A stretch of 63,550 nucleotides of DNA, filler included, from Neolecta irregularis DAH-3 (lineage: Eukaryota), in NCBI GenBank assembly GCA_001929475.1. It is 5 parts of 5 records of this genome, joined end to end, with 100 filler letters (N's around TTAATTAATTAA, not from the genome) between each part and the next. Parts side by side here need not be neighbours in the genome. Positions count along the whole stretch, not along the records: positions 19,796 to 41,338 come from LXFE01000422.1; 4 more parts are not named here. One strand, given 5' to 3'. Within the stretch, counting starts at the first letter, position 1; the number at the start of each line of letters is the position of its first letter. Below, piece after piece: positions 146-61,567 of this stretch. The translations under genes were made by a program, and so were the position numbers. The notes under the pieces are model-generated. The model saw only the letters and a program-made list of their open reading frames with translations. It was not told the origin of the DNA and searched no databases.

Positions 146-1276
146 CTAAAATCTGTAATTGTTGTCAAATTTATCAGAGGGATAGTCCGCCATCGCGTTA
201 TTGTCTTCAATTTTGACATGTCTGGGTTCTGAGGAAGGAAGACCTTGTGTCTGTCCTTCAGAATATGTCGACGCATCTGTCTGAGCATGACTGTGGAAGA
301 GACTTGTCATGAAAGAGGATGGAGCGTTATCGTTATTCATGTGAGATTGAGCTGTTGCCCAGATAGTGGAAAGTGGAAGATTGACTACGACTATCACTCG
401 CGAAGATTGGAGTAATCCGCCAGCAGGAAGCATCATACCGACAATAGTACATAGAACTGCGCATATCAGATCAACCTTGCTAAAGCCTAAAGAGTACCGG
501 GTATAAGCATAGTCTGACATGCCATGATAAATATGATTGAAATGGGACCAAACTGTTTAAAACCAAGTTTTCTTCGAATAACGATTGATTTCCATAATTT
601 GGCCATGAAGATTGAAGAAAAGAAGCAGAGACTGAAAGCGAATGCAATATGATCGGCTCGAGAAATCCAAACATCACGAACTCCGTTCACTCCAAAAGTG
701 ACAACCGTAACCCATATATTAACAGACATAACTCCAAGAGCAACGATGGCCGATACTATAGTCATGATGTTTCTAGTGGATTGATATGGCGCAAATACAG
801 AGCGACATTGTAGTATCAAGGCCATTTCGATTAGAGCCATGAGAATCACGTTCGAACAGGTTGCTGCTTTCAGTAGAATCCAATCGCTTGTTGGGATCAC
901 TGAATAATCCATCACGAATCCCACGTAGATACTACCCCATGCACTGAGCCAGTAAAGGTGCCTTAATGTGCTGTTGATAATTGCAACGATGAGACAGAGT
1001 ACATTCATGATATGTACGGGCTTCTTGAAGCGTTCAAGTTTAGTTGTGATCCCAAGGACAAAAAGAACGATGGCACACATCCCGATTTGCGCACTGTAGC
1101 CACTTGCAGTCTCAAGTCTTGAGAGCTCTAAAATATTAATAATGTTGCTCGAAAGATGAGGATATACGATATCCATCAATGTCGTGCAGACGGATCGTAA
1201 CATTCCGACCGTCGCTCCCAAAAAGAGTAATAGGCTGAAAAAAAGGAGGATAACCGGCCTTCTCAAGAGTAGCCAT
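146..1276 (-). CDS. STE2: Ste2/Mam2-type pheromone receptor (7-TM GPCR), 3 exons
   Basis: Spliced N-terminus MATLEKAGYPPFFQPITLFGSDG..LHDID; hydrophobic TM segments; Ste2 motif RRKLGFKQFGPISIIFIMACQTMLIP; two GT-AG introns restore frame. Confidence 0.92.
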
Positions 1277-2892
1277 ATCGAAAAGCAATGTTATTTGCGC
1301 TTATTCAGGCCGTGTTATATGCCTGCTTTGCGACTGAAATAGTGAATGACTGGAGCTGCCAGAGATCTCAGGGGAAATATATAAAGCAGGGAAAGTTAGA
1401 GAATTAACGATGAAGCCAATTTGGTCTTTCCAGTCTACTACTGGAAGCCGGTGGGGACCAATCAAGCTGTTGAAACCTACTAGGCTGTAACACGGCCAAA
1501 ACACCTATTTAGGCATATGCAAGCTGTAAGAAGTTACATAAAGAAGTTATGCGAAATCAGACATAATATTTGCATCAATGTGCCAACCAGAGCCAAAGAT
1601 TTGGGCCCAAACTCCAGGTTTGAACGACCGCCTTTAAATCCGTTCTGGAGAATCGAGGCGATATAAAAATTGGCTTCGATTATGTGAAGTCTTGAAAAAA
1701 TGATCAACCAGGTCAAAAAGAAATGATTTGACAAATAGATCAAAGATTTCCGGTAATTACGAGTTCAGAAGAAGAAACATTGTAAAAAAGACCGAGGGAG
1801 CTGCTTGTGTGATATCACTCCGATACTCTTGAATCTGTATTCTGCAAGACAATATTTGCCACCAAATCGAAAGAGGCCTTCCGTTAGCTTCACGGCACCA
1901 TTGTGTGACAAGCAAAGGCCCTCGAGCCGACTAGGGGTGGTTTGGTAAGAAGTTTTGTGAATCTCAGGAGAGGACTAAATATTTTAGCAATGGAGTCGAT
2001 TACAGACAAAAGATAGAGAGATAAGACGAGTAAACTCTAGTCCTACGAAACTCATCGTCCTTGGAAAGGAAGGTATCAGCAGTCAGGCCTTTTCGTGATG
2101 TTTGGTGCTCCAGTCACCTGCGAATATTCCAAAGATTTGAGCGCTTATGAAAATCATAGGGGCATAAATTTAACCCGCTCGCTTCCGAAAGTACGTCCGA
2201 TTTGGACTGAAGCGTTAACATCGTTTCACCAGGTTGTCAAGAATAATACGAATACGACAACCTTGTTCAAATCCGGGATTTGGTAAACAACACTATGAGA
2301 AAAAGGGTGTGAAATGACACAACCGGCTGCTAAATCTACCCTGCTCTAGAAATTATACCAGTCTAGTATTCAAAGTCTTTATTGTGCTGGTAGCAAGACG
2401 AGACATGCGACCTTGAGCTCAGGATACTACAGGCGCAATCGCTTTGTATATATTCTGGGAGAATAGACTATGTTCTGGGTTTTTTCATTTTAGCAGCTCT
2501 GTCTTTGTGCTACTCGTTATAATTTCACAACGACGATCTGCCGGTAACAACACCAGTGCTTCACTGGTATCAACTATACTTCATTTCTTCTCAGATTTGC
2601 AAAATCGGGTTTCACTACAAAATGTACACCATTATCGCACGAAGATTGATGTGGGTCTTATTTACCAAGTGTTCATGGCTCTACTATTCGTTGAATCCTC
2701 CCTATGAAATTGTTATTCTCTAATTCGCCGTACTGGTGACCAAAAACTGTGTCTGCAGCCGGTGTGAATGTTTGAAGATACAGAACGTTGATTATGTAGA
2801 TTACTCTTTAATGTGTTATTCGCTTTACTTATAAGTATTAAGAGAGATGTTTCAAATCAGGCCCCACTTCTCCTCCCTTCACCCTTCGCATC

Positions 2893-11618: not shown

Positions 11619-14525
11619 TCATACACTACTTATCTTCTCAATGGACAAAGTCTCCCTCAACCTCCTCTCAAAGATTTCGCTCATCTTTGGAATCTCAACT
11701 AGCACAGTTTTAATAGGCTCACAGTCTCTCGATCCCAGATTCTCCTTTAATTGTTGTCGACGCTTCCGTTCGAGTTCAATAGGATCAACATCATCCTCTT
11801 CAGATGCCTCTGAGGAGGAATCAGAATGATCAAGAGTGTCCATATCTGCCAAGTCGCTATCACTGATCCCGAAATCATTTCCAGAAAACAAGTTTTTAGG
11901 GATTGACTTTTCAAATGTGGTTTGTCCCAACCCCATCTTTTGACGGAGTCGAGATACTTTCCATTGTTTATAGCGGCCATTCCAGTCAACTATTTCGTTT
12001 ATCTCTTTGATAACTTTATCGTAATCAGCGCCCGAATCGCGAATCAGTCCGAGAATATCAACCTTCGCGGTACCGTTGCGGAGAAAGTGAAGAATAAGTT
12101 CGATCCATTCTACGAGATCCTTGAATAGACCCTAAGAGAATTCAGTACCAAGCCCATATAATAAAAGCACATCATCATGGATATGGACTTTATGAACGAA
12201 TGAATACAGATCCTGCTCATGGCGAGCTGCAAGGTCAATAAAAGATTGGACCAGCGTATTGGGCGACATCGAAGACTCTGCAAAGTCAGAGGCAACACTC
12301 GAAAAGTATAAATGCCTTCAGAATTCGATTTTTCCACAGTCGCAATTATATCGTCAACAAAATTCGCAAAATCGATGACCGAGTTATGCACATTTGCAGT
12401 TTTATAAACTCTCGCGAGGGGTTCGTAAAATATCACAATGATATCTTTCAGTAGTGAACTAAGTACACTCTCCTGTACCAACGAGATCATCTCTTCTTTG
12501 TCACGCTTGCGCATCAAAATACGAAGATACTGTGTGAAATTTGAAAATATGCGAGCTTCAGGTTTAACTTCATTATTCTAAGATATTAACAAAGAGTGCC
12601 AGAAAGAATTATACATTATCAAAAGCTTCCTTGTACGCTTGAGATGCTTCAAAGACCATCTGAATATGTCGAGGCTGTAACGGCGGAGTAATTATATCAG
12701 ATTGAAGGATTCCTACAAGCAAATCCTTATCATCATCCAAAAGTCAGTTTTGTATTGGAAATGGAGACAAAACCAATGGATTCTCGAACCCTTTCCCGGA
12801 ACTCCCGGGTTCCATCCACGTAACATTCGATCCGTTTGCAAAGAACATCATCTGCAATCCGTAATTTGACTTCATCTGCTTTATTCTTCAATGCTTTAAT
12901 ATCATCATTCAACGTCGAGCTGATGATCCTCTGCAAAAGGCTTCGTCCACCGAATGGTTGCGCAGTGAACAAATCAATAATTCCACGAACCATCATCATT
13001 GGATTTGAAAACCTAACGGTGTTCTTCAATATAGTGTATGGGATAAGTGAATGTATGCGTTTCATCTGTGCAAACACTTCTGAAGAATTGTCTGCGGCAA
13101 TAAACATGTGATAAATCACTGCTGCAACTTCAATTCGGGCCCATTCAACGACTTTCTTGTAATGGGAGGGGAGATCTTTGATACTGTCATGCTTTCGTAT
13201 TTCTTGAAACATCGTTACAAGACCGTCTAGAAATTTAGAACCCCATGGAAACCAGGAAGATACGGTCTTGAATTAATTCTGCTTTGAATTGAGTCATATG
13301 TTTATCCAACTCCCGTGCTCTCATCTTTGCAATTTCCAGAAATTTGGCTTGCTCATCGACTCTTCTTTCGTCGAGTGCTTTGCGGAGTTTCTGATCTTTT
13401 AATTCAGAGAGAGTAAGAGTTGCTTCATCGGTGGTAAGGAATTTAAGCAAATGTCGAGATTGAGAGTAGTTTGGGTCGGCTAAGAGACGGCGTAGCCACT
13501 GACGAAGAGTAAGACGATTTTCTGATAACTTAACAGGTTATGTTATGGAAGCTATACCTTCACGGTGCAATGCGATAGCTGCGTTTTCGCTCCCAGTCGG
13601 ATTAGACCCACTGGAATCTAGAATCGAATCAGAAGCCAAAGAGCTTGAAGAGCAATTTCGAGAGAGCATCAATTTGGCAAATCGACCTGTGAATGGAGTT
13701 TTGTCTTTTTTGGGCAAAGAAGGAGGCCGTTTACTAGAAAACTCTTCCCTGATCTATATGCCTATCAGTCTGCAGCAACATAAAATTGCTTACATTTTTA
13801 TCTAGTAGCTTGAATGCTCCATACCGTTTGGCGACAATAATTTCAGTAGCATCAGGCCTCCTGGTTTTGATAAGGAACTCGGCATGATATTTCTTCCGAA
13901 TTTTGTGATTAGATGAGGGTGTTCGACGAACAGAGATGACATTGACATCAAACCCGTTAATGTAATTCCCTTCCGGAATGTTTCGAATAACATCAAGTTC
14001 TCCCACACTTGTATTCGTTTCTGCATCATCGACATGAATTGACATCTCATTCCCGCTTGCAGTCCTAATACCAGCATTCATCATCAATTGGACCAACTGC
14101 TCCATCTTGCGTCCCACTCTTCTGCGCTTTGTTATTTCAGTTCGATCTTCCGAAGCGGAAATAGCTTTTGAGGTAAACGCTTCAATGAACACCTGAACAT
14201 TTTCCTGCCAAAATTCATCCTGCTTCGCATCCCTTAGAAAGGGGAAGGTAATGATAAATTTGTTAAAGATATATCGAGAGATGGGAAAATGTGTGTTCTC
14301 AGGACTGATGTTTTCGCTCGAAGAGAATGGATGACCGAAACGCATCAATCCCTTTGGATCGGCCAAGCGATTGGCGAGTTCTTCATGAATTTGAATGGAG
14401 AGTAGCTCCTTCTTGAGATAGTGTTCTGCAACGCATCTTAGCTTATTTGGTTACGAGTCAAATTTCGCACCTTGAACTGGAGATAGATGGGTCTCACGGT
14501 CGATATCAGCCTGTTGATTGCCCAT
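11619..14525 (-). CDS. PX-associated/PX/DUF3818 protein (Lec1/Ypr097w-like), about 9 exons
   Basis: EHYLKKELL, FPFLRD..FWQ, KRRRVGRK, HSLIPYTILKNTVRFSNPM, AQPFGGRSLLQR, IFYEPLARVYK. Confidence 0.9.
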
Positions 14526-19695: not shown

Positions 19696-19795
19696 NNNNN
19701 NNNNNNNNNNNNNNNNNNNNNNNNNNNNNNNNNNNNNNNTTAATTAATTAANNNNNNNNNNNNNNNNNNNNNNNNNNNNNNNNNNNNNNNNNNNN
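19696..19795. other. Assembly spacer (N run with TTAATTAATTAA six-frame stop linker)
   Basis: Identical 100-nt construct recurs at 41339, 43158 and 61468. Confidence 0.98.
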
Positions 19796-19971
19796 ACAAT
19801 TCCGTGACAAAAGCGAGCGCTGCAAAAGTACTCGCACTGCTCGAGAAGCAGGGAGAAATAGTAGTAAAGACATACGGTTGGTTGCAAATATCTAAAGCTG
19901 ACGCTAGGAAAACAGTCCGTCTATGTCATCAAGCAGGACAGTAATACCAGCGACAAAACTAACTGCAGGAC
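19796..19971 (+). repeat. Second partial HOP2 copy (allele or paralog) between gaps
   Basis: 176 bp matching 20472-20647 with 5 substitutions. Confidence 0.9.
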
Positions 19972-20289
19972 NNNNNNNNNNTTATCTTGCTCCTTTAGAC
20001 TTTTATTAATCGCGTTGGATTTATCTTGCTCCTTTAGACTTTTATTAGACATCTTAGAATACTGATCTAGACATCGATCACGCTCCTTTAGACATCTAGC
20101 GATATTATACTCATCTAGACATCTACTGTTAATCGCGCGTAATAGGATTATACGAATTTGGGCGTTTGCGGTAGGTGATCATGTCGTGACGCGAGTCGTC
20201 CCACGCCAACCTCATAGAGTCGTCACGTGAGACGACGCCGAATTCTTATTATATACTCGATACAAATATCTCGACTTTCCTTGCCAACA

Positions 20290-21227
20290 ATGGGAAAAGT
20301 AAAGACAACTCAAGTCAAGGGAGATGAAGGTATACCCTCCCGATCAAAGTTATTCACGGGAGCCGAGAAAATCGTTCTAGAGTACTTGAGGAAGCAAAAT
20401 CGACCATACAGTGCCAGTACGATATCCCGCTTGGGCAATACAATGACCAGCGGATATATCCTGCAACCTGCACAATTCCGTGACAAAAGCGAGCGCTGCA
20501 AAAGTACTCGCACTGCTCGAGAAGCAGGGAGAAATAGCAGTAAAGACATACGGTTGGTTGCATATATCTCAAGCTGACGAAAGGAAAACAGTCCGTCTAT
20601 GTCATCAAGCAGGACAGTAATACCAGCGACAAAACTAACTGCAGGACCCGCTGGACACTGCGTCGCCCCAGGAACTCGAGGAAATGGACGAAAAGATTCA
20701 GACCTTGAAGACCGAAATCGCTCAGGCGAAAAATAGGATAAAAGCGCTGACGTCATGTGTGCGCTGGAGTGGATGTTTTACTGACAAGAGCACTCGCTGC
20801 GCTGATGGGCACGCAAACGACACAAGAACTCGGCGCAAACATGCCCGTTCTCAAACAAGAGGTATAAATGCACACGGCCTGTCTGACGGCTATGGACGGA
20901 CGAATTGGAGGCGCGATTAAGTTCGCTGCGGTCCGGCAGTGTCCGGCTAATTACCCCTGAAGAACGGACAAGAATTGACAAAGAATATGTATTTATGCGC
21001 AAGACGTGGCGCGCGAGAAAGCGGATGGTGCCGGTAGATGCCGGGGATAATGCTGATACCCAGTTTGCGGATCTGTGGTTTGCGCTGACGGAGAATCTGG
21101 AGCACGATGGCGAGTTGCGGGTATTTATTGTTTATCCGGGTGCTCATGACAGGCGATGCTGGGGATCGAGGACGACGAAGAAGCCATGGGCGACGATTTG
21201 GTGGTGGAATCCAAACCCGGCAAGTAA
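20290..21227 (+). CDS. HOP2: Meiotic homologous-pairing protein Hop2/Meu13, 9 exons, two predicted non-canonical introns
   Basis: LEYLRKQNRPYSATDI, KTYGKQSVY, ITPEE, WRARKRMF, LGIEDDE; introns 20330-20362, 20417-20450, 20553-20583, 20613-20644, 20757-20790, 20862-20895, 21028-21063, 21121-21152. Confidence 0.93.
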
Positions 21228-21525
21228 GACTGCGGCAACGTGACCTTTTCCCCACCCGCCTCCTCGATTCCTCCTGTTTGTTATAGCTGTATCAATTTAT
21301 AGCCGCTTAGCTATCAACCGCTGTTTATGCAAAGCCTGCTGTTTATNNNNNNNNNNCCATTTATAGCTGTATCAATTTATAGCCGCTTAGCTATCAACCG
21401 CTGTTTATGCAAAGCCTGCTGTTTATCCGCCCAAAGTTCTGCCGTCCTAGAGCCGCGATCCTGAAATATCCTGCCCGATCCTGAAATATCCTGCCCGATC
21501 CTATTCACGCTCCACCGTAAACACA

Positions 21526-22947
21526 ATGACCGCCCTGCACAAAACCCAGCCGCAAAACACAGACGGCCACCGTGCGGCGGCAGTCGGCAGCCCGCCGGGA
21601 AACAGCATGTCCTTGCACAAGCGTCCATGCTGACCGGCAGACACAAGCCATGTTCCGTGCAAGTTCTTCCGCCAAGGCGCCTGCACCGCCGGCCGCAGCT
21701 GCCAGTTCTCGCACATCGTCGAGACGGAGCACTTGGTGTGCAAGTACTTTCAAAAGGGAAACTGCAAGTTTGGCACAAAGTGCGCACTGGCCCATATTCT
21801 TGCAGACGGCCGGCGGGTGCCTTCGCGCTCGCCGCATTACACGCCGGGAGGCACGCTGCCTGCCTCGCTGCAGCTGGGCAGCCGCATTGTTCCCGCGGGC
21901 GCAGCGCGATCCGGGCCGTCGGCCCTGCACAACGGCCTTGTCATGTCCCGCAAGTCGCAGTCCCCTCGCGACGAGTTTCCCGCCCTGTCTTCGAATCCCG
22001 CCCAGCGCTCGTTCCCGATGCCGATCCCTAACCAGTTCCCATCGATCTCAAGCCCGTTCCATCCGCCAACCACCGCCGGCTTTGCCGCCAAGACCCTCGG
22101 CCCGCTCGACGCTACCCTGCCGCCGTCCCTCGACTCCAACTCGCTGTCCTATTTTGCGCGCCACGGCCCCGTTGCCGCGTCGGTGCCCTCCAGGTTTGGA
22201 CGCTCGCTCGGCTCCTCCGCGTCGCCCTACACACACACCTCCTTGTTTATCCACAGCGACAAGGCCCGCGATCTTCCCTCCGGCCGCGCCCCAGGCTCGC
22301 CCCGCAACTCCTCGGCGTTTGCCCACGACAGGCACCGTCAGTCGATACTCTCCCGCCCCGCCGCCGTGTCGTCAAGCTTTCCCGCCCGCGGCTGGCCTGC
22401 AAACAACAGCGCCGATGAAGCGGTCGATGACGATATAGAGTTTGCGCTCGAAGAAGAGTTTGTTCCCACTTCGCTGCACGAGGATGTGTTTTCGCCTCAA
22501 GAACGACAGCGCCGTCTGTCTCGTCATGGACAACGAGAAAGCATGGAACGCGAAGCACGAAACGCCCTCTATTCCCCTCCCGTCGAGCTTTCTTCCAGTT
22601 CAGGCTCAATTCCAAGAGGCACGCCCCCCTCTTCATCTCGCTTTGGCGCTCTATTTAGCTCTCGATATTCTAAAGACGATCTCGTCTCGCCAAACTCGGG
22701 ACACGTCGCTTCCCCATTACGCAGGTCGGTAGATCTCGTGTCACTTCACACTAGTCAACGTATACTCGACTTTGATCCTACCCCAGATTCCAGACCCCCA
22801 GACTTTCTCTACGTCCCACCCGTCACTGCAACACACAATCAAAAATCGTCCGTCGCCTCCATTCATCCAGACGACGATACAACCTTCTTCATGGACGACC
22901 CAGATGAAAGTCTGGTTACAGCAGAAATGCACAAAGTGTTGATTTAG
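21526..22947 (+). CDS. Tandem CCCH zinc-finger protein (Cps3/Lee1-like), 2 exons
   Basis: NTSHVPCKFFRQGACTAGRSCQFSH and CKYFQKGNCKFGTKCALAH; EEEFVP motif; GC-AG intron 21605-21640 removes an in-frame stop. Confidence 0.9.
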
Positions 22948-23119
22948 TAACGGAATATATACGGTACATAGAAGGGATTATTTACGATTGGAATTTCAAA
23001 AAGCAAGAATTCACTTGAATAATTGGGGGTTTGATCGAGGTGGTAGGTAACTTAAAATTGACTCGGGGTTTCTAAAAGATGTATACATTCGCTTTGTGTT
23101 GTGTTTCTCCTGTTTCGCG

Positions 23120-23137
23120 TAAGACACGCGTGTCTTA
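23120..23137. promoter_or_regulatory. Perfect 18-bp palindrome with MCB box (ACGCGT) upstream of EXO1
   Basis: TAAGACACGCGTGTCTTA, preceded by TCGCGT, 80 bp before the ATG. Confidence 0.55.
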
Positions 23138-23216
23138 ACCAACCACCATACTCGCCCGACATTCTCGATACTCGCCCGATACTCGTAGCCAGATATTCTC
23201 AATACTCGTACCCGAC

Positions 23217-25185
23217 ATGGGCATTCATGGCCTTCTTCCTGCCCTGAAATCAATTCAACAGAAAACCCATATTCGAGCGTTTGCAGGTCAGACAGTCGGT
23301 GTTGATGCCTATGTTTGGCTGTACAAAGGGGCTTTTGCTTGTGCCTTCAACCTGGCACTTGGAAAAGACACTACAAAGTGCGATTCTCTTTCTCCCCTGT
23401 TGACCGGGAAGATACGTGGACTATGTGATGCATCGAGTGAAAATGCTTCGACATTATAATGTTCGTCCGTATATTGTATTAGACGGCGGTTTCCTGCCCA
23501 GTAAAGCCAAAACGGAAATTGAACGCAAAAAGTACATCTAAACCAACTTGTATTAATCTACTAGACGAAGAGCGGATAGTCGGGCATTAGGATTGAAATT
23601 TTTGGCTCAAGGACAGAAAAAGAAGGCTATGGAGCAGTTTAAAAGGTGCTTGGATATCACCCCTGAAATGGCCCATCGATTCATTATTGCATGCAATAGT
23701 GAATCAACAATTTTCTGATTTTCTAGGAACTCCAGAAAGAACATATCGATTATATCGTTGCGCCTTATGAAGCAGACGCTCAACTGGCATACCTCGAAAA
23801 AAAGGGTCTGATATCAGCCATTATCACTGAAGACTCGGATCTTCTCGTCTACGGCTGTAAAAAAGTCTTGTTCAAAATGGATCAGTGTGGCGAATGCATT
23901 GAAATTGATCGATCGAGATTTGCGGCTACTGCTGATATCAAATTAGCTGGATTCAGCGATGATACTTTTCGACATATGGCTATGCTTTCTGGCTGTGATT
24001 ATCTCTCAAATATACCGAATCTCGGTCTAAAGAAAGCCCATAAATACTTGTACAAGTATAAAACGATCGATAGGGTATAATGCAGCTATTTCATTTCCTT
24101 ATTTTGCATAGTTTTTCCGAGCGATGGCTTTGGATCCTACTATCAAGATTCCAGACGGTTACGAACAAGATTTTTATAAAGCAGATCTTACATTTCGACA
24201 TCAGCGAGTTTTTTGCCCGGTTTCGAATACGTTGGTGATGTTGAATGAGCCTGAAAATCCGGCACTTTTGGAAGGGCAGGATTTTATTGGACCGTACGTC
24301 TGTTTTGTTTCAAAATTGTTCATTTTCAGATTATTGTTATCGCATATTGCCCAAGGGATTGCTCAAGGATACTTGTGTCCCGTCACAAAGAAACCTTTTC
24401 GTCATGTTGGTACCTCCGGTAAGGAGAATATTCCTCCGAAATCTTTGAAGAAAACTGAATCTTGTCCGAAACCTGGTTCTATTGAATCCTTTTTTGGCTC
24501 GGAACCGGTCCTCGCGACTGCTACCAGCTCTTTATCTCTAACACCGTTATTTCATATTGTTCCGCCCAAGAGGTCTCTGGAAGCAATGCCGATATCGGAT
24601 GCATCAGAACGTATCGCAAAACGAATCAAGGTCTTCTCGCAGGAACCAACCTCGGCTAATACCCCAACTATCACCCAAAGTTGCTACTTTACACCTCCTA
24701 ATAGCCAACAGTCTCTTAAATTTCGAGCGATCCATACTGCTGCAAAGGAAGCCATGAAGCCTGATGTTGCTGATTCGCCGATCACGCCACCTGAATCCCA
24801 GGTTTTAGACCTTGGGGAACCCGAACAAATCGCTGCTGCATCTACCACGGCAGTCAACGAATCACTTGAAAAAGCAGAAATTCTGCCACCCTTGGAAGAA
24901 TATTGTACCCCAACTCCTAAACAACGCTCCAGCAACTTTTCAACAACTGGACCATCAAAGTTTGCAGAAAATTGGAAATCTCGATTTTCAAATCAATATT
25001 CTACACCAACGAGACCAGATCCTACAAAAACTCCATTCATGATGACTAGTTCTTTGCCCAGATTGGGAATACGGTCTATTGAAATAGCGAGAACAAAAAT
25101 TAGACTTTCAAAGAACGTGCCTATAGTGGAAAAGGCGGCGGGCACACCATCTTTCTTTGAAAAGTTTCGGTATGCATTGTCTTGA
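23217..25185 (+). CDS. EXO1: Exonuclease 1 (XPG/Rad2 family), 6 exons
   Basis: MGIHGLLPALK, VDAYVWLYKGA, VAPYEADAQLAYL, TEDSDLLVYG, LSGCDYL, FRHQRVF; GC-AG intron 23689-23726. Confidence 0.96.
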
Positions 25186-25494: not shown

Positions 25495-26432
25495 ATGTTT
25501 TCTCTAAAGTGTAGAGAATGCTCGTCTTGGTTAAATACTGACGCACAGCAACCATTTTCTTTTATAAAATCGCTTTGATAACAGTGTTATCATTCACGGT
25601 AGCGTTTGTTGGTACTTTCTGTCCATGGCTCATGCTGATATCAGGCCTTGCAGCGTTTGGATGTCGATCAAACGCCGTACAGTCATTTTATGTCATCAAG
25701 GCGGCGTATACTGGAACAGCAACAGTGCATCTCAAGAAACGAAGTATTGGTGATATGATGGATAGCATGGAGAAATCCGCAGATAGAGTCGGTGATAAGG
25801 CCGAAAATATAGGTTCTCAAGGTGCACAGAATGCTATTGAAGAGATGCTTGGAAGCACAAAGTTGATCGTATATGTTGGTGCAGGAGGTACTGTTCTTTT
25901 TGACGAATTCTGATAATGTCAAGGATTGTGTTTTGGGGAGAGCGACTTGGTTTGTGCCGCATCAAAGTCGAGTCCAGATGAAAAGGATCCATTGAAACTG
26001 GTCGATATATTCAACCATTATCCAAGGATGATTCTTCCCTTTTGGTTCCTCATTTTCGCATTTGGGATTATTGGATTGTCGTTAATAGGCAGTGTCTTAA
26101 TTTCAATGATCGATACAAGGAAAAGTCTTATCAAGATCACCGACGGGCTACTTGTGCTAGGATGTATCGTGTTGCTAATGGGTGCATTGCAAGCTGAGCT
26201 TGTCATACGGGGGACATTGGACATGATACGGGATGTACCATTCTCAATTTTAACTGCAACGAGAGGGTATATAGCGTCCGCGATGATCTGGGCTGGGTTC
26301 GGGCAAGTGCCTTATCTAGATGAATGCTTACCTAGTAGAGGCAGTTGGGTTGCGATTATTCTTCGCCGGCTTATTAAGAACAAGGGAGAAGGGAGAATGC
26401 TTAATAAGGTAGGGCAGATGAGTAAAGTATGA
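25495..26432 (+). CDS. Fig1/Dni1-like claudin-superfamily mating membrane protein, about 5 exons
   Basis: TM1 followed by GC, spliced YVGAGGLC claudin-like motif, C-terminal GYIASAMIWAGF, 4 TM segments. Confidence 0.7.
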
Positions 26433-38890: not shown

Positions 38891-40436
38891 TCATTCCTTT
38901 TCATAATCCAAGGGTTTTCCAATTCGACCTTCACGAATGTTGTTGTACTTGGATCTGGGATACCCGAGAATATTTCTTTCGGATGACTTCGATGGAATAG
39001 TTTCTTCGAATTCTTGGGACGTAGTTCCAATGATTGAATTTGGGTTATTTACCGGGTGATCACTAACCTTTAGCACTTGAAAATGGGGGTAGAGAAAGAG
39101 TTGTACCCAGAGGTCTCCCAGAACATTACTCCGCCGAGTTGATGGGACTTTACATACTTCTACAAAGTTTGAGCGACTTTACCAGTTGGGAGAAAATACC
39201 GCTTTGTAACGTGTACATTCAGGAGTATCGTAAGAAACCATCATTCGCTTCTTTGGGTCATAGGACCAGCTTGCACAAGACTTTTCATCTATTGAAACTC
39301 AGCCAAAGGCATTCAAGATCACTGTACCGAAATGCTCCTCTGCACCTTCAAGAGGCAATACCTTGTAATCAAACACTCCGTTCTCCCAGCTGCCTTGGCC
39401 GACACCGGAGAAAGGGGTTCCAGGACCGTCGGTCTCCAGAAATGATCTTCCATAAAGGGGAGATCCTGGATGCTTAGTTCCTTGTACTCGAAGGAACCTA
39501 TACCGAGGACTAATTTACTAGCAGGAACACCAGCATTGATGTATGCTTCAACGGCCTATAAATATAAATACTGGACTTTGGTAAATGGAATATACCTGAT
39601 CTGTGTTGATTCCGTCTCCGTAAAGATTCGAAATATGACCTGCCTTTTGATCCCAGCTACCAGAATAATCATATCTAAGAACGATGAGAAATTTCCCTTC
39701 AAGAAGGGTTATACGCCATGAGATTCCAAAATGAGACGTACCGATTCATCTCCAGGATTCGAAGTTTCTCGTAGTCTCGCTTTCCACAGGGAGCAGCAAT
39801 TGTAAGGTACAGCTTTTCTTTTGACAACCCATTGAGACTGGCATAATCATCCAGACGTTCTCTCGTCATCTTGAGCAATGAGACAAAATCCTGAGCTTCC
39901 TGGTCATTCTGAGGGTATTCCCAATCGACTGTCTGTCAAAGAGAAGAGCATAAAGGGATTTATCTTACTATCAAGGCCATCGAAGCCAACATCTTTCATG
40001 ATACTGATAGCAGATTGAGCAAACTTTTCTCGTTTCCCCGGATCACCCACCATTGGAGCAAAGTTTGCGGAATAAGACCATCCTCCAATAGATAAGAGGA
40101 CCTTCATATTTCGATTTTCAGTCTTCAATTTGAATATTTGCTTGACGCATCCGTATGCATTGTCTCCAGTTTCATTCCACGAGTCTTCCGGATAATGCTA
40201 CAATCTTAGAAATCTCGCAATATAAATGAAAAACTTTTTCCAAGTCTGACCAGCAATCAGACAAATAAACTTCTCCGGTTTCTGGTCGTACATTTGCAAA
40301 TGCATACAAAAGGAAATCCAGTTTATCAGCTGGAATCTCTTGCGGCTGGAAGTTTCGGCCGTATATTGCCCTATAATAATAAATTTCAGCTTTAAGAACA
40401 CTGATACCAATTGACAAAATAGGCAAAGATATTCAT
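38891..40436 (-). CDS. GH18 chitinase, no signal peptide, about 10 exons
   Basis: [48 protein letters not shown]. Confidence 0.95.
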
Positions 40437-40619
40437 TTCGCAAGCCCAATAATCTCTGAAAAGAATTTTCTTCGGGGCACACGATATCCCTTTATTACCC
40501 AGGGTAAGCCCGATAGTTATCTTAACATTCGAAACAAATAATTAATTGTGGCGCTTATCCCAGACCTTGGATCCATTAAAATGAACTGCGGCAGTCATCC
40601 CAGATATTCGACACACTAA

Positions 40620-40700
40620 GGGTGCGTTTGGTGCGCGCCAAAATTTCGTAAAATGTGGCTTTTAATTCAGGCACGCGTTTGGTGCGCACCACACTTTGTA
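40620..40700 (+). mobile_element. Possible solo end of a Harbinger-type element
   Basis: TAA then GGGTGCGTTTGGTGCGC, with GCGTTTGGTGCGC repeated about 50 bp inside; starts like the MITE TIR at 27012; no partner TIR found. Confidence 0.5.
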
Positions 40701-41271
40701 AATATACTTTCCAAAAATTCGAATCTCAAGTGCGGAAACTAGAGAGGAGAACTCGCCCTAGACCCAGACCCAGAATACCCGTCTGGAGCAATTGGTACTC
40801 TACAATCTGCTATTACAAAGTCTAGATAGTATTTCAATCCCTAACACTTTGGAATAACAGTCTGAATAGCATCGCCTGGACCAATGGGCCAGCCCAGCCT
40901 CTGAAAATCTCGTGGGCTTTGGCCCACCCCAAGACGGGTTGTCTGATGAAGCAGGTGGCAGTACTGTTTGTGGGGGAATATGAAGTGTAGCAGCTGGTGG
41001 CAGCGAGGACATGCTTATAGCAAGGGTAGCAAGGCATGTAGGGGGAACAGCAGGAGCAGGGTCAGCGGCAACTTCCTACCACGAGATGGAGGGCTGCCCC
41101 ATGTCGCTCAGAATCTGTCCCAAGGGTTAAAGTCGAGAAAAGGATGGAGATGGAGTGAATGTGGCCGGGCCAAACAGGCCAAACTGGTGCGTGAGACGGG
41201 AAAGATGGGTGAGCCAGGCAGGAAAGATGGGTGGGCAAGGCTCGCGAGGTGGGCGGGCAAGACAGGTGTGC

Positions 41272-41338
41272 GGGAGGGATGGGAGAGGCAGGAGGGATGG
41301 GAGAGGCAGGAGGGATGGGAGAGGCAGGAGGGATGGGA
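41272..41338. repeat. 18-bp minisatellite (GGAGGGATGGGAGAGGCA)n running into a gap
   Basis: About 3.5 direct copies. Confidence 0.9.
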
Positions 41339-41438
41339 NNNNNNNNNNNNNNNNNNNNNNNNNNNNNNNNNNNNNNNNNNNNTTAATTAATTAANNNNNN
41401 NNNNNNNNNNNNNNNNNNNNNNNNNNNNNNNNNNNNNN
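41339..41438. other. Assembly spacer
   Basis: N-TTAATTAATTAA-N. Confidence 0.98.
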
Positions 41439-42495
41439 GCCGCCGCCGCCGCCTATAACAACACAGAGCCCGCAGCCCGCCCCGCGCAATGCCTCCCGCC
41501 CTCCTGCGCGCACGCGACTCTGGCGCAGACCCGCCGCCCGCCGACGCCGGCTCCGGCTCGACGCTCTTCGTGGGGCCCTCCACGCAGGTCGGTACGCGCC
41601 CCTGCCGCGTCCACGCTCACCCGCGCCCCCAGCAATGGTCGTGCTCTATGTCATCACCGGCACCGTCACCTGCCTGTTCCTCGTCATCATCGTCACCGGC
41701 GCCGTCAAGGCCGCCCGCCACCCCGACCGCTACGGCCCCCGCGGCTCCTCTGCCCACGGCCCCCCGCGTACTGCTCTGACTGACCGACCCGCCCTGACCG
41801 CCCCGCAGAGACTCGCGCCCGCGGAATCGCCCGCGCCCTGCTCGACACCTTCCCCACCGTCATCTTCCGCAGCGCCACCGCCACCGCCCTCCCCCCCGCA
41901 AAGCCCGGCAAGCTCGGCCTCGAGCTGGACAGAGCCGTCTCGCTCGACAGAGCCGTCTCGCTGGACAGGGCCGTCTCGCTCGACAGGGCCGGCTCCGCCC
42001 CAGACCCCCCGCCGCGCTCCGCCGACGGCCCCAACCCCCAGTGCCCCATCTGCATCGACGCCTTCCAGCCCGGATCGGAGCTGCGCATCCTCCCCTGCAA
42101 GCACCAGGTTTGGCCCTCCGCTGCGTCATTGACCGCTAGTTCCACGCCGCCTGCATCGACCCCTGGCTGCTCAAGGTCTCCGCCCTCTGTCCCCTATGGC
42201 ATCTCCCCGCGCCCGCCTCCTGCTCACATACAGCCGCTCCAACGTCGACCCCTCCGACCAGGGCTCCTCCGCGGAAGCCCCGCACCTGCCCGCCCCAGAC
42301 TCGGCACACTCGCGGCATCTCCATATCTTTGACAAATACATCGCAATCATGAGACCCCACCGCAGGTCCAGCAATCCAGGTGAAGTCGACTCGTCCGCAA
42401 TCGATTCCCTCAGACGCCACTCCCTGTTCAATAGGCACCCTCTCCCGTTGCAGTCCACTAACGAATCTTCCATCCCTCACGTTCCCCCTGCCTAG
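41439..42495 (+). CDS. Transmembrane RING-H2 E3 ligase (PA-TM-RING/RNF13-like), 5' truncated by gap
   Basis: TM VAMVVLYVITG...[57 protein letters not shown]; GC-AG intron 42199-42233. Confidence 0.9.
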
Positions 42496-42539
42496 CCTGA
42501 TTACCGCCGTCGCCTGATACCCGCCGTCTCGTCTCACTC

Positions 42540-43157
42540 GTTTATAATTCTCCGTTATAATTCTCCGTTATAGCTCCCGTTATAGCTCCCATTATAGCTC
42601 CCGTTATAGCTCTCCCGGTCATTTCAAGCCGGTTCATTTCTATTTATCTTTCTTGTTCGGAGCGGTTAATCTGGCGTTCAGTTACTCTTGTCGTCACCCG
42701 GCCGTTGTAGTAATATGATCAAAATATTATAATCTAATCCATAATCAATCCTTAGAATCTAATCTGAATCCTTGGAATCGGTCAATATTTCTTGAATTTT
42801 TCTCATCCATAAAGTCGTCTTGTCTTCATTTTTAATCTCTTTAGACTCCCCTTCAATCTCAGACTCCCCTTTAATCTCCCCTTCAATCTCAGACTCCCCT
42901 TCAATCTCAGACTCCCCTTCAATCGTCTTTTCCATACATTGTGCTATACGCCGAGCTCGACCTGTGATTTTCCGACGAATTCTACAAACTTTGCCAGATT
43001 CATTTTGTTGTAAATGAATAATTAAATCATCTACAAGTGACGAAACTTGTTGTGAATCCTCTAAAACACTCGTAATTCGAGATATATTTCGAGATGTATT
43101 AGATGTATTAGATGTATTAGATGTATTAGATGTATTAGATGTATTAGATGTATTAGA
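42540..43157. repeat. Cluster of short tandem repeats
   Basis: (GTTATAGCTCCC)-like units 42540-42612, (TCTCAGACTCCCCTTCAA)-like units about 42838-42923, (AGATGTATT)n about 43091-43157. Confidence 0.85.
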
Positions 43158-43257
43158 NNNNNNNNNNNNNNNNNNNNNNNNNNNNNNNNNNNNNNNNNNN
43201 NTTAATTAATTAANNNNNNNNNNNNNNNNNNNNNNNNNNNNNNNNNNNNNNNNNNNN
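43158..43257. other. Assembly spacer
   Basis: N-TTAATTAATTAA-N. Confidence 0.98.
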
Positions 43258-43282
43258 GGCGAGGGCGCGCACCGGGCCAGCC

Positions 43283-44023
43283 ATGTCTGCCTCCTCGGAC
43301 ATGGCCGCTGCCCCGCTCGTCGTCTCTGACGCTGCCGCCAAGGACATGGACATCGCACCCGCACCCGCACCCGCTCCCGCTCCCGCTCCCGCTCCCGACA
43401 TGGAGAAGCAGCCCTCGCCGCTCGCCGACTTCCCGCGCGCGACCATGGTCAACCCCACGCCGCTCGGCATCTCCGCGTTCGCCGTCTCGACGTTTGTGCT
43501 CGGCTTCTACCAGGGCCAGTTCGGCGGCCTGACCATCCCAAACGTCTTCGTGCCCGTCGCCTTCTTCTACGGCGGCATCGCGTCCTTCCTCGCCGGCCAG
43601 TTCGAGTTCTACATCGGAAACACCTTTGGCGCCGTCGTCCTCAACGCGTTTGGCGGCTTCTGGTTCTCCCTCGCCTGCGTCTACATCCCCAGCTTCAACA
43701 TCCTCGCCGCCTACGCCGCCGACCTCCAGCAGGGCTACTACGCCATCGCCATCTACCTCACCTCGTGGCTCATCTTCGTCACCATCATCGTCGCCGCCCT
43801 CCTCTCCACCCGCCGCTGGAGCCTCGTCGGCATGTTCAGCTGCATCTGGCTCAACTTTCTGCTCTCCATCATCGCCTTCTACAAGGACCCCCTCACCCAC
43901 CACAACGTCCTCAAGGCCGCCGGCTCCTTCTCCATCCTCGCCGCCATCTTTGGCCTCGCAAACACCGTCGAGGAACTAGTCACCCACGAAAACTCCCTCT
44001 TCACCATCCCCCACCAGCTATAA
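43283..44023 (+). CDS. Gpr1/Fun34/YaaH (Ato/Ady2-like) acetate/ammonia transporter, intronless
   Basis: NPTPLGISAF, FYGG..FLAG, GNTFG, FGGFW; 6 TM segments. Confidence 0.93.
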   Translation: MSASSDMAAAPLVVSDAAAKDMDIAPAPAPAPAPAPAPDMEKQPSPLADFPRATMVNPTPLGISAFAVSTFVLGFYQGQFGGLTIPNVFVPVAFFYGGIASFLAGQFEFYIGNTFGAVVLNAFGGFWFSLACVYIPSFNILAAYAADLQQGYYAIAIYLTSWLIFVTIIVAALLSTRRWSLVGMFSCIWLNFLLSIIAFYKDPLTHHNVLKAAGSFSILAAIFGLANTVEELVTHENSLFTIPHQL

Positions 44024-53174: not shown

Positions 53175-54466
53175 TACCACATTCAATTGATTCTAAATTT
53201 CCGTGTAAATAATGTATTATTGAATTTAGTGGTTATATGAGGGTCTTACCCGCTGCTAATGTCCAAAATTCGATTTCAGGTTGATACTCAAGCTCCTAAA
53301 AGGGTAGAATAGGTATGGGTACTAAGTGTCTCGGACCTGGTACTCGAAGCAGATTTAGTTGGATTGCTGAATGTAGTGTGGTTACTTGTGATACGGGTAA
53401 CTACGCATACTCAATACTCAGATAAACCTTAATCTGCTATCCAAATTTAGGCCTACTTACTAAGTATTCCCTGAGGCGTACTTTCTCGCGCCTACCTGCT
53501 CCAGATTGAGTAACCCAGTCCACGAGTGACTCCATTAGGCCTACAAATTCCTCTTGCGGTCATTCGTCGTGTTTGCATTCGGGTGGTCAGGCTTGATCTG
53601 GGATGGTGGCTCCGACAATACGCGATGGGTTTGCAGAGCAGAAGAGCTCATAATCCAGAGACTGTGGAGGTCAGTCTTGTAGTTCTATCTGTTTAACTGT
53701 TAATAAGCATTCTGGCCGTTGCAGTTTGTGAGATGCTGCAGCTTTAGAATTTGTGTGACGCGCCACTGCATGTGCATAAAACAACGTGGCATCCCCAATT
53801 CTCATAAACGATGAAAGCTCAATAGAGGTAATGTTTCGTTGTTCGGTTTTTGACTCAAAGGCCATGCTGCGGCTAATGAGCTGGATTTTCTGGAGGAATC
53901 TACCGTCTGTGCCCAGCGTTAGCCGAAGGACACAGCAACTTGGTGAAGGAAGGCTAATTAACGGCTATTTCCGGGAATTAGTGGCGTCAAGGGCAAACCC
54001 GAGTATAAAAGAGGACGCTGCCCTCTTCGCGCGCGGCGCCTGCAGGTGATCAAAAAGTCCGCTGCAGCCTCCAACACATCTCTCCACCCTGAACTACCTG
54101 TGTCTCTGCCCTACCACCACTACTACCACCACAACCACTTATCTCTACTTTCTACTTTCTACTCTTCGCTGCCCGTGGTGCATTCCCCGCTGTATTCTAC
54201 GGGTGTTGGCTGCGACATGATGGCGACAGGTCTTAGCACCGATGTCCTTCAAGACCAGAAGCCTGAGCACGCGGTGAATCTCTACGGGTACGAGCATTTT
54301 TGTTTCTTGAAGCCTGCTGTCGGATTCAGTGCTGTCGTACAATGTCAGTTAACCGTTCTGCTCCAGCCACGGCTTCAAAGCTCTCTTATCTTTTTTGAAC
54401 ATATGTTTACGTATTTTTTATAGCAAAGAATCAATTATCGATCATAAGCCAACTTCGATCGATACG

Positions 54467-58416
<3,950 letters not shown>

Positions 58417-61467: not shown

Positions 61468-61567
61468 NNNNNNNNNNNNNNNNNNNNNNNNNNNNNNNNN
61501 NNNNNNNNNNNTTAATTAATTAANNNNNNNNNNNNNNNNNNNNNNNNNNNNNNNNNNNNNNNNNNNN
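61468..61567. other. Assembly spacer
   Basis: N-TTAATTAATTAA-N. Confidence 0.98.

Follow-up and report, generated by a model that had tools for sequence, protein, structure and literature searches.

Introns that break the GT-AG rule at a terminal dinucleotide are already known as rare classes in fungi, where, in both Ganoderma lingzhi and Fusarium graminearum, published lists place GA-AG and GT-GG with the most frequent of the minor junction classes. In G. lingzhi, 35 GA-AG (0.038%) and 38 GT-GG (0.041%) junctions are counted among about 92,000; in F. graminearum, both types belong to the Sanger-confirmed 'other' class, which makes up 0.31% of 2604 introns. The locus considered here is HOP2, the TBPIP/Hop2 gene of Neolecta irregularis DAH-3 (GenBank assembly GCA_001929475.1), which occupies positions 20290..21227 on the plus strand of a 63,550-nt stretch of DNA (hereafter the window, along which all positions are counted) and whose fourth intron, proposed to lie at 20613..20644, is a new, well-supported case of a GA-AG junction. 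It resembles its fungal precedents in dinucleotide class, in belonging to a nuclear protein-coding gene and in being documented by transcript data; it differs from them in that Neolecta has two odd introns in a single eight-intron gene, both only 32-34 nt long, and in that the GA-AG position has been shown to carry GT in 37 related loci. An initial annotation, made from the sequence alone, had proposed this junction and had called GA-AG introns very rare in fungi, a description that the G. lingzhi count bears out.

Outside the fungi, GA-AG junctions are frequent in Oikopleura dioica and Eurytemora affinis, accounting in one species for 3.2% of the supported junctions, and a variant U1 may be involved there; use of the GA-AG junction in the human FGFR genes depends on a canonical site 6 nt upstream (PMC7072748). 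The Neolecta site has in common with these systems a GA donor preceded by AG and efficient use despite a 'dead-end' dinucleotide (PMC7072748); unlike FGFR, it has no GT 6 nt upstream, the nearest GT lying 4 nt downstream, at 20617. The HOP2 gene of budding yeast, an orthologous meiotic gene, likewise has a weak 5' site, the donor GUUAAG, which is Npl3-dependent in meiosis, and its expression is tied to splicing efficiency (PMC7969001). The yeast site keeps GU, however, and it is in yeast that regulation at the splicing step has been shown. The Neolecta genome paper describes DNA and RNA sequenced from fruiting bodies, and its main text contains no mention of intron, splice, RNA-seq, transcriptome, meiosis or Hop2; none of the papers searched names both 'Neolecta' and 'Hop2'.

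Evidence on transcripts and base calls takes the form of assembled contigs. Two public sequencing runs contain the HOP2 stretch, one yielding a DNA contig and the other a spliced contig, and neither is on record as RNA. The DNA contig (word depth 436) spans 19982-21346, differs from the window solely at 20359 (G>T) and reads A at 20614, the second base of the putative GA donor. The spliced contig (3280 nt) agrees with all HOP2 exons without a mismatch, includes sequence from both the 5' and the 3' flank of the gene, and skips eight segments, namely six GT..AG segments, one segment of 32 nt and one GT..GG segment of 34 nt; because eight precise skips in a contig with both flanks look like complementary DNA (cDNA), it was treated as RNA-derived. 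Its joints, the translation and the alignment with orthologues define a plus-strand gene, from ATG to TAA, of nine exons (20290-20329, 20363-20416, 20451-20552, 20584-20612, 20645-20756, 20791-20861, 20896-21027, 21064-21120 and 21153-21227) and eight introns, with a product of 223 amino acids. The six GT..AG introns are intron 1 (20330..20362, 33 nt), which is in frame and without a stop and would therefore read through as protein, and which is also removed in the public gene model; intron 2 (20417..20450, 34 nt); intron 3 (20553..20583, 31 nt), directly upstream of a 29-nt mini-exon at 20584-20612; intron 5 (20757..20790, 34 nt); intron 7 (21028..21063, 36 nt); and intron 8 (21121..21152, 32 nt). 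Intron 4, in phase 0, is placed by the skip in the spliced contig in combination with a placement rule and the fit to orthologues.

At intron 4, 32 nt are absent from the spliced contig, and no GT or GC placement of the intron is possible. The contig skips 20609-20640 with a slide of 7 nt; since the direct repeat GCAGGAC stands at both borders (20609..20615 and 20641..20647, plus strand), the deletion can be placed in eight ways, with the ends GC..CT, CA..TG, AG..GC, GG..CA, GA..AG, AC..GG, CA..GA and AG..AC. None of these is GT-AG or GC-AG: GT begins none of the eight, the single placement starting with GC ends in CT, and the GT or GC start of an ordinary U2-type intron is accordingly missing. 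An AG acceptor occurs only in GA..AG, at 20613-20644, and this placement was chosen by the rule of AG plus branch point, not read directly, because the joint is ambiguous over the eight placements. So placed, the segment carries the AG 3' end and the CTRAY branch motif of a U2-type intron, the latter as CTAAC at 20635..20639 (plus strand). The branch A of this motif, at 20638, is 6 nt from the 3' end; the branch A lies 6-7 nt before the 3' end in the three other HOP2 introns that have a strict CTGAC or CTGAT before AG. Its length of 32 nt compares with 31-36 nt in the other seven introns, and its donor, CAG/GACAGT, agrees with CAG/GTAAGT everywhere but at +2 and +3 (7 of 9 positions). This is the best agreement among the eight HOP2 donors, which are otherwise weak, the seven GT donors matching at 5, 5, 5, 5, 5, 3 and 6 of 9 positions.

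When all donors and acceptors around the junction were enumerated, the GT at 20617 gave a 28-nt segment and a shifted frame, and the only in-frame GT/GC..AG options were 20601-20644 (44 nt, with a GT donor at 20601..20602 on the plus strand), which deletes VIKQ, and 20595-20644 (50 nt); neither is the joint of the spliced contig. The initial annotation thus described the segment correctly, both in its bases, its branch point and its acceptor and in its statements that the nearby GT causes a frameshift, that the nearest in-frame GT costs VIKQ and that the donor matches the U1 consensus. Of the findings that it had named as telling against a GA-AG intron, none appeared: base 20614 reads A in the DNA contig, the spliced contig removes 32 nt and not the 44 nt expected from a donor at 20601, and the locus is spliced at all eight introns. 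Fungal Hop2 orthologues, to which it had looked for a further check, align across the junction without a gap, and its GA-AG interpretation is supported. Two features of the gene had escaped it, namely the in-frame 33-nt intron 1 and the GT..GG intron 6 at 20862-20895.

The consequences for the protein point the same way. The public protein, "Homologous-pairing protein 2 [Neolecta irregularis DAH-3]", retrieved by a search with the first HOP2 exon, has 106 amino acids; in its model introns 1-3 are removed, 20613-20644 is read through, and a frameshifted tail follows. This N-terminal model contains the TBPIP/Hop2 winged helix (PF07106, E 1.3e-22, 79.9 bits, profile 1-62 of 62), and its alignment with the mouse Hop2 winged-helix structure 2mh2_A (residues 14-76 of the public protein, E 4.5e-12) stops exactly at the intron-4 junction. 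Pfam searches with single HOP2 exons returned chance-level matches only, and none to LZ3wCH. Full-length orthologues numbered 61, of which 15 were aligned with three candidate products and 53 (200-245 amino acids) furnished a scoring profile. The product of the spliced contig aligns without a gap through both odd junctions in the former and reaches 228.6 bits, gapless over positions 6-183, against the latter. On the same profile, the 49-nt GT-AG alternative at intron 6 scores 214.3 bits, the 44-nt and 50-nt GT-AG alternatives at intron 4 score 214.1 and 206.6 bits, respectively, both canonical alternatives combined score 199.9 bits, and the public read-through model scores 114.0 bits. Colinearity with the orthologues extends over the full length, including the coiled-coil and C-terminal regions. 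The Neolecta protein shares the winged helix and the colinear coiled-coil and C-terminal parts of the Hop2/TBPIP family (PF07106; PDB 2mh2), and no difference from the family was found in it; the public model is simply truncated. Judged from these alignments, removal of the 32 nt is needed for a full-length Hop2.

The position of the intron is likewise informative. Metagenome contigs were scanned with an 18-sequence Hop2 alignment, which yielded 47 loci; 13 of them were examined by tblastn, and the motif G[KR]Q.[VI]Y...Q was sought in all 47. Among the 41 loci in which the motif is present, GT directly follows the same Gln codon in 37, which by our count comprise 25 distinct peptide-plus-donor combinations and form two divergent sequence groups; in the other four there is no intron, and the frame runs on into homologous D/E-rich sequence. 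The tblastn comparison of 13 loci showed homology taking up again downstream of the junction, and several of these share the Neolecta layout of a 30-nt mini-exon ending ...VI[RK]Q, a 29-39-nt intron and an acidic 'E..L..MD' exon. Intron 4 is thus positionally homologous with spliceosomal introns of orthologous genes (37/41), and because these 37 loci have an intron there, always with GT, the position is old and widely shared. The comparison indicates that the Neolecta GA donor is a derived state at an ancient phase-0 position, immediately after the Gln codon that closes the winged-helix mini-exon. The homologous GT..AG intron of one locus (L016, 1708-1746) contains the 9-mer GACAGTAAT, the same letters as the start of the Neolecta GA..AG intron; this is probably chance or a branch-site-like motif.

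Taken as a whole, the segment 20613-20644 is very likely a real U2-type spliceosomal intron of Neolecta HOP2 that has GA instead of GT at its 5' site and that sits at an ancient, shared position. We infer that the spliceosome is the agent of removal, that GA..AG is the exact placement, and that pairing with U1 and U6 compensates for the altered dinucleotide. U1 and then U6 would find the GA site through its other informative positions, which are near consensus (CAG/G at -3 to +1, AGT at +4 to +6); base pairing of U1 with both of these blocks, followed by that of U6 with positions +4 to +6, would fix the register, and the tiny intron, with its branch point 6 nt from a CAG acceptor, would leave little alternative choice. 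Given the near-consensus donor, the usual tiny length and the close branch point and CAG acceptor, cleavage is predicted between G20612 and G20613. An Rfam scan of the window gave 0 matches, and the window contains no small nuclear RNA gene.

Several points weigh against this interpretation. The spliced contig is labelled 'DNA?', which is a tool's guess, and its origin from RNA was inferred from the eight precise skips. Its match table does not list the 26-letter mini-exon piece, and the joint there is marked 'between: not known'; the record coordinates 2722-2747 and the entry 'side 26' fit this piece exactly. The DNA contig may be the assembly's own source and hence not an independent call of base 20614, and minor use of the donor at 20601 may occur, as contigs do not show minor isoforms. 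Lastly, the 7-nt repeat at the borders is an outlier in comparison with the 0-4 nt of 15 other defined introns and, together with non-canonical ends, forms a known signature of template switching; both of the alternatives that take this repeat as their starting point are weighed first below.

The repeat could be a target duplication, in which case the intron would be a new gain in an intron-less ancestor, created by staggered double-strand break repair from a 25-nt filler and 7 duplicated nt. Such an origin would account for the GA donor, in that the first three intron bases copy the GAC codon of the next exon, as well as for the outlying repeat; Daphnia neo-introns have 4-12 bp repeats of such a kind, new introns in Oikopleura are reported to be mostly GA-AG (PMC4202315), and 4 of the 41 related loci are intron-less at the site. 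Nevertheless, the intron occurs at the same position in 37 of the 41, spread over at least two divergent sequence groups, and since so many related loci keep it, inheritance is more parsimonious than loss and regain at an identical site. Moreover, the window holds no other copy of the filler, and the CAG/G part of the repeat is splice-site consensus on both sides. A recent gain is therefore improbable, and inheritance of an old intron whose donor has changed to GA is preferred.

The serious rival to an inherited GA-AG intron is that reverse transcriptase switched templates from one GCAGGAC copy to the other during cDNA synthesis; in that case, the segment would be retained in the cell or spliced from 20601. 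Apart from the signature described above, it draws support from PMC7072748, where this possibility is raised for GA-AG junctions. The deletion restores the frame and the exact orthologue length, however, the branch motif and acceptor stand at the right distance, and the segment sits exactly at the intron site of 37 of 41 relatives. Template-switching artefacts are normally a small minority of products, and here the assembled contig carries the deleted form. An artefact of this type is thus quite improbable, and splicing of the GA-AG intron is again the favoured account.

A further possibility is that the RNA came from a GT allele, with base 20614 polymorphic or miscalled and the GA donor never used. 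The spliced contig holds no intron sequence, and the sample has more than one haplotype, as shown by a contig at the scaffold edge, by the duplicated flanks of an assembly gap and by a 5-nt insertion in the spliced contig; the G>T difference at 20359 adds to the points in favour of such an allele. The edge contig (19796..19971, plus strand, 176 bp), located between a spacer and a 10-N gap, duplicates 20472-20647; it begins within exon 3, takes in intron 3, the mini-exon and the GA..AG intron, and runs on for another 3 nt. It differs at 5 of 176 positions, one of them exonic and the other four within intron 3, with the GA..AG intron unchanged, and probably represents a second haplotype, not a gene copy, so that the initial annotation, which had invoked a second HOP2 copy with the same GA, was right about the GA but not about the copy. 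This contig gives partial independent support for A at 20614. The 10-N gap at 21347-21356 is flanked on both sides by about 70 nt of near-identical sequence (21270-21430), and the insertion in the spliced contig, behind 21280, matches the copy after the gap; the redundancy looks like haplotypes badly collapsed by the scaffolder. As regards the donor itself, GA stands in the main scaffold, in the edge contig and in the DNA contig at word depth 436, and the exons of the spliced contig show 0 differences from the main haplotype. A GT allele as the source of the spliced RNA is thus highly unlikely, and use of the GA donor remains the better explanation.

Two observations on the haplotypes may be added. 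The difference at 20359 is a polymorphism in the sample and falls in intron 1, 4 nt from the 3' end of that intron. Between the haplotypes, intron 3 (20553-20583 versus 19877-19907) shows 4 differences in 31 positions and the GA..AG intron 0 in 32, which may reflect tighter constraint on the latter, or chance.

Introns of the HAC1/XBP1 type are excised by Ire1 cleavage and ligation, have twin stem-loops with CNG/CNGN in 7-nt loops, and are 20-26 nt long. Excision of this non-spliceosomal type at CNG/CNG sites is suggested by the placement 20610-20641, which cuts AAG/CAGG and CTG/CAGG, and by a length resembling that of the class, but it was rejected as extremely unlikely, as folding of 20584-20670 revealed no supporting structure (no pair of hairpins that would expose the cut sites in their loops, and no more stability than in shuffles, with z -0.43 and 63 of 200 shuffles folding as well), the 5' site lacks C at -3, and both the features of the segment and its conserved position are those of a spliceosomal intron. 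U12-type introns, for their part, have the 5' consensus [AG]TATCCTT and a TCCTTAAC-like branch site; a U12-type assignment was rejected on comparison with the start GACAGTAAT and the CTAAC branch of the Neolecta intron.

The second odd intron of HOP2, intron 6, is defined by the joint 20860>20895 of the spliced contig, which slides by 1 nt and gives either GT..GG (20862..20895, 34 nt, plus strand) or, one base to the left, GG..TG (20861-20894). With the GT donor, the acceptor is GG, and a CTGAC motif has its branch A 9 nt short of the 3' end; the next AG is 15 nt further on, and its use in a 49-nt GT-AG intron costs five coiled-coil residues and 14 bits. The motif RL..L[KR].G, sought among the metagenomic loci, matched 7 of 47 only, all intron-less there. 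In one of the intron-less loci (L030), the distance between 'EL' and the G in 'L[KR][SG]G' is 26 residues by our count, equal to that in the form of the spliced contig; another locus (L015) has an intron about two codons from the intron-6 position.

Other genes of the window give a measure of how common such junctions may be in Neolecta, whose introns are 31-39 nt long and have almost no donor consensus beyond GT. Rvb1 (RuvB-like 1; 56837-58413) contains six introns 32-39 nt in length, of which one is GC-AG and the other five are GT-AG, and its product is 94.2% identical to protein P0066 over 452 residues without gaps, a match that fixes its first intron as GC..AG (56969-57007, 39 nt). In the BET bromodomain gene all three introns are GT-AG, two of them defined by homology and the third ab initio; the PX-domain gene has two GT-AG introns and, on the minus strand, a junction best solved as a 38-nt GC..AG intron (12278-12315), which gives the orthologue's length, the only GT..AG solution there being 23 nt; and an M17 aminopeptidase gene has two less precisely defined GT-AG introns. 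Altogether, 3 of 18 well-defined introns in the window are not GT-AG (two in HOP2 and the GC-AG intron of Rvb1), to which one GC-AG candidate may be added. Introns that are neither GT-AG nor GC-AG number 2 of 8 in HOP2 versus 0 of 11 in its neighbours (Rvb1 6, BET 3, PX 2; Fisher p 0.164, not significant), or 0 of 13 when the two M17 introns are included (Fisher p 0.133, not significant), so that an enrichment of HOP2 in odd introns is suggestive only. Ab initio intron censuses of the window (codon log-odds, GT..AG plus branch motif, and enumeration of open-reading-frame junctions) had no power, as the HOP2 exons were not detected as coding; the 0-23 canonical solutions that they returned per junction were about chance level.

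That HOP2 needs two non-canonical events, GA..AG and GT..GG, among eight might be explained in either of two ways: weak sites may gate Hop2 to meiotic tissue, in parallel with the Npl3-dependent site of yeast, or the Neolecta spliceosome may be permissive on terminal dinucleotides. Both readings are put forward tentatively, as a possibility with the balance of probability against it.

The window itself consists of five N. irregularis scaffolds, with a spacer made up of 44 N, TTAATTAATTAA and another 44 N between each and the next (19696-19795, 41339-41438, 43158-43257 and 61468-61567), and because separate scaffolds are joined there, gene neighbourhood across the spacers is meaningless. The scaffold bearing HOP2 extends from 19796 to 41338 and has 10-N gaps at 19972-19981 and 21347-21356. 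Its G+C content is 0.50-0.53 at 20001-24000, a value also seen at 40001-44000, versus about 0.41-0.44 elsewhere in the window; besides HOP2, the former region includes a CCCH zinc-finger gene (21634-22947), where both strands have open frames. Two genes of the window are mating-related, namely a STE2-type pheromone receptor (149-1290, minus strand, E 8.7e-49) and a Fig1-like membrane-fusion protein (25917-26432, plus strand). Rvb1 shares its strand with the BET double-bromodomain gene, which immediately precedes it (53900-58413), and two public Pneumocystis models (P0069 and P0071, of 1087 and 1097 amino acids) have bromodomain, BET and TIP49 in one protein; since these models carry the domains of both genes, the BET/Rvb1 gene order is shared with Pneumocystis, and the models themselves are probably false fusions. 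U12-type donors read GTATCCTTT, which the start of the second Rvb1 intron (57228-57259), GTATCCCTTTC, resembles; no matching U12-type branch site is visible in it.

The immediate outcome of these findings is a corrected annotation of a core meiotic gene in an organism used as a point of reference for how multicellularity arose in fungi: the public protein of 106 amino acids, without the coiled coil and the C-terminal DNA-binding part, gives way to a real product of 223. Intron 4 also amounts to a natural experiment, in which one lineage has GA where 37 relatives have GT, together with accurate splicing and the best U1 complementarity in the gene, and it supports the view that non-canonical donors are tolerated through compensation. 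For gene prediction, the locus is a warning that gene finders limited to GT/GC-AG will truncate such genes. The presence of two odd introns raises the question of whether the splicing of tiny introns is relaxed in Neolecta generally or whether HOP2 is controlled at the splicing step; if the Neolecta spliceosome is generally permissive, the public gene set would hide many truncated models.

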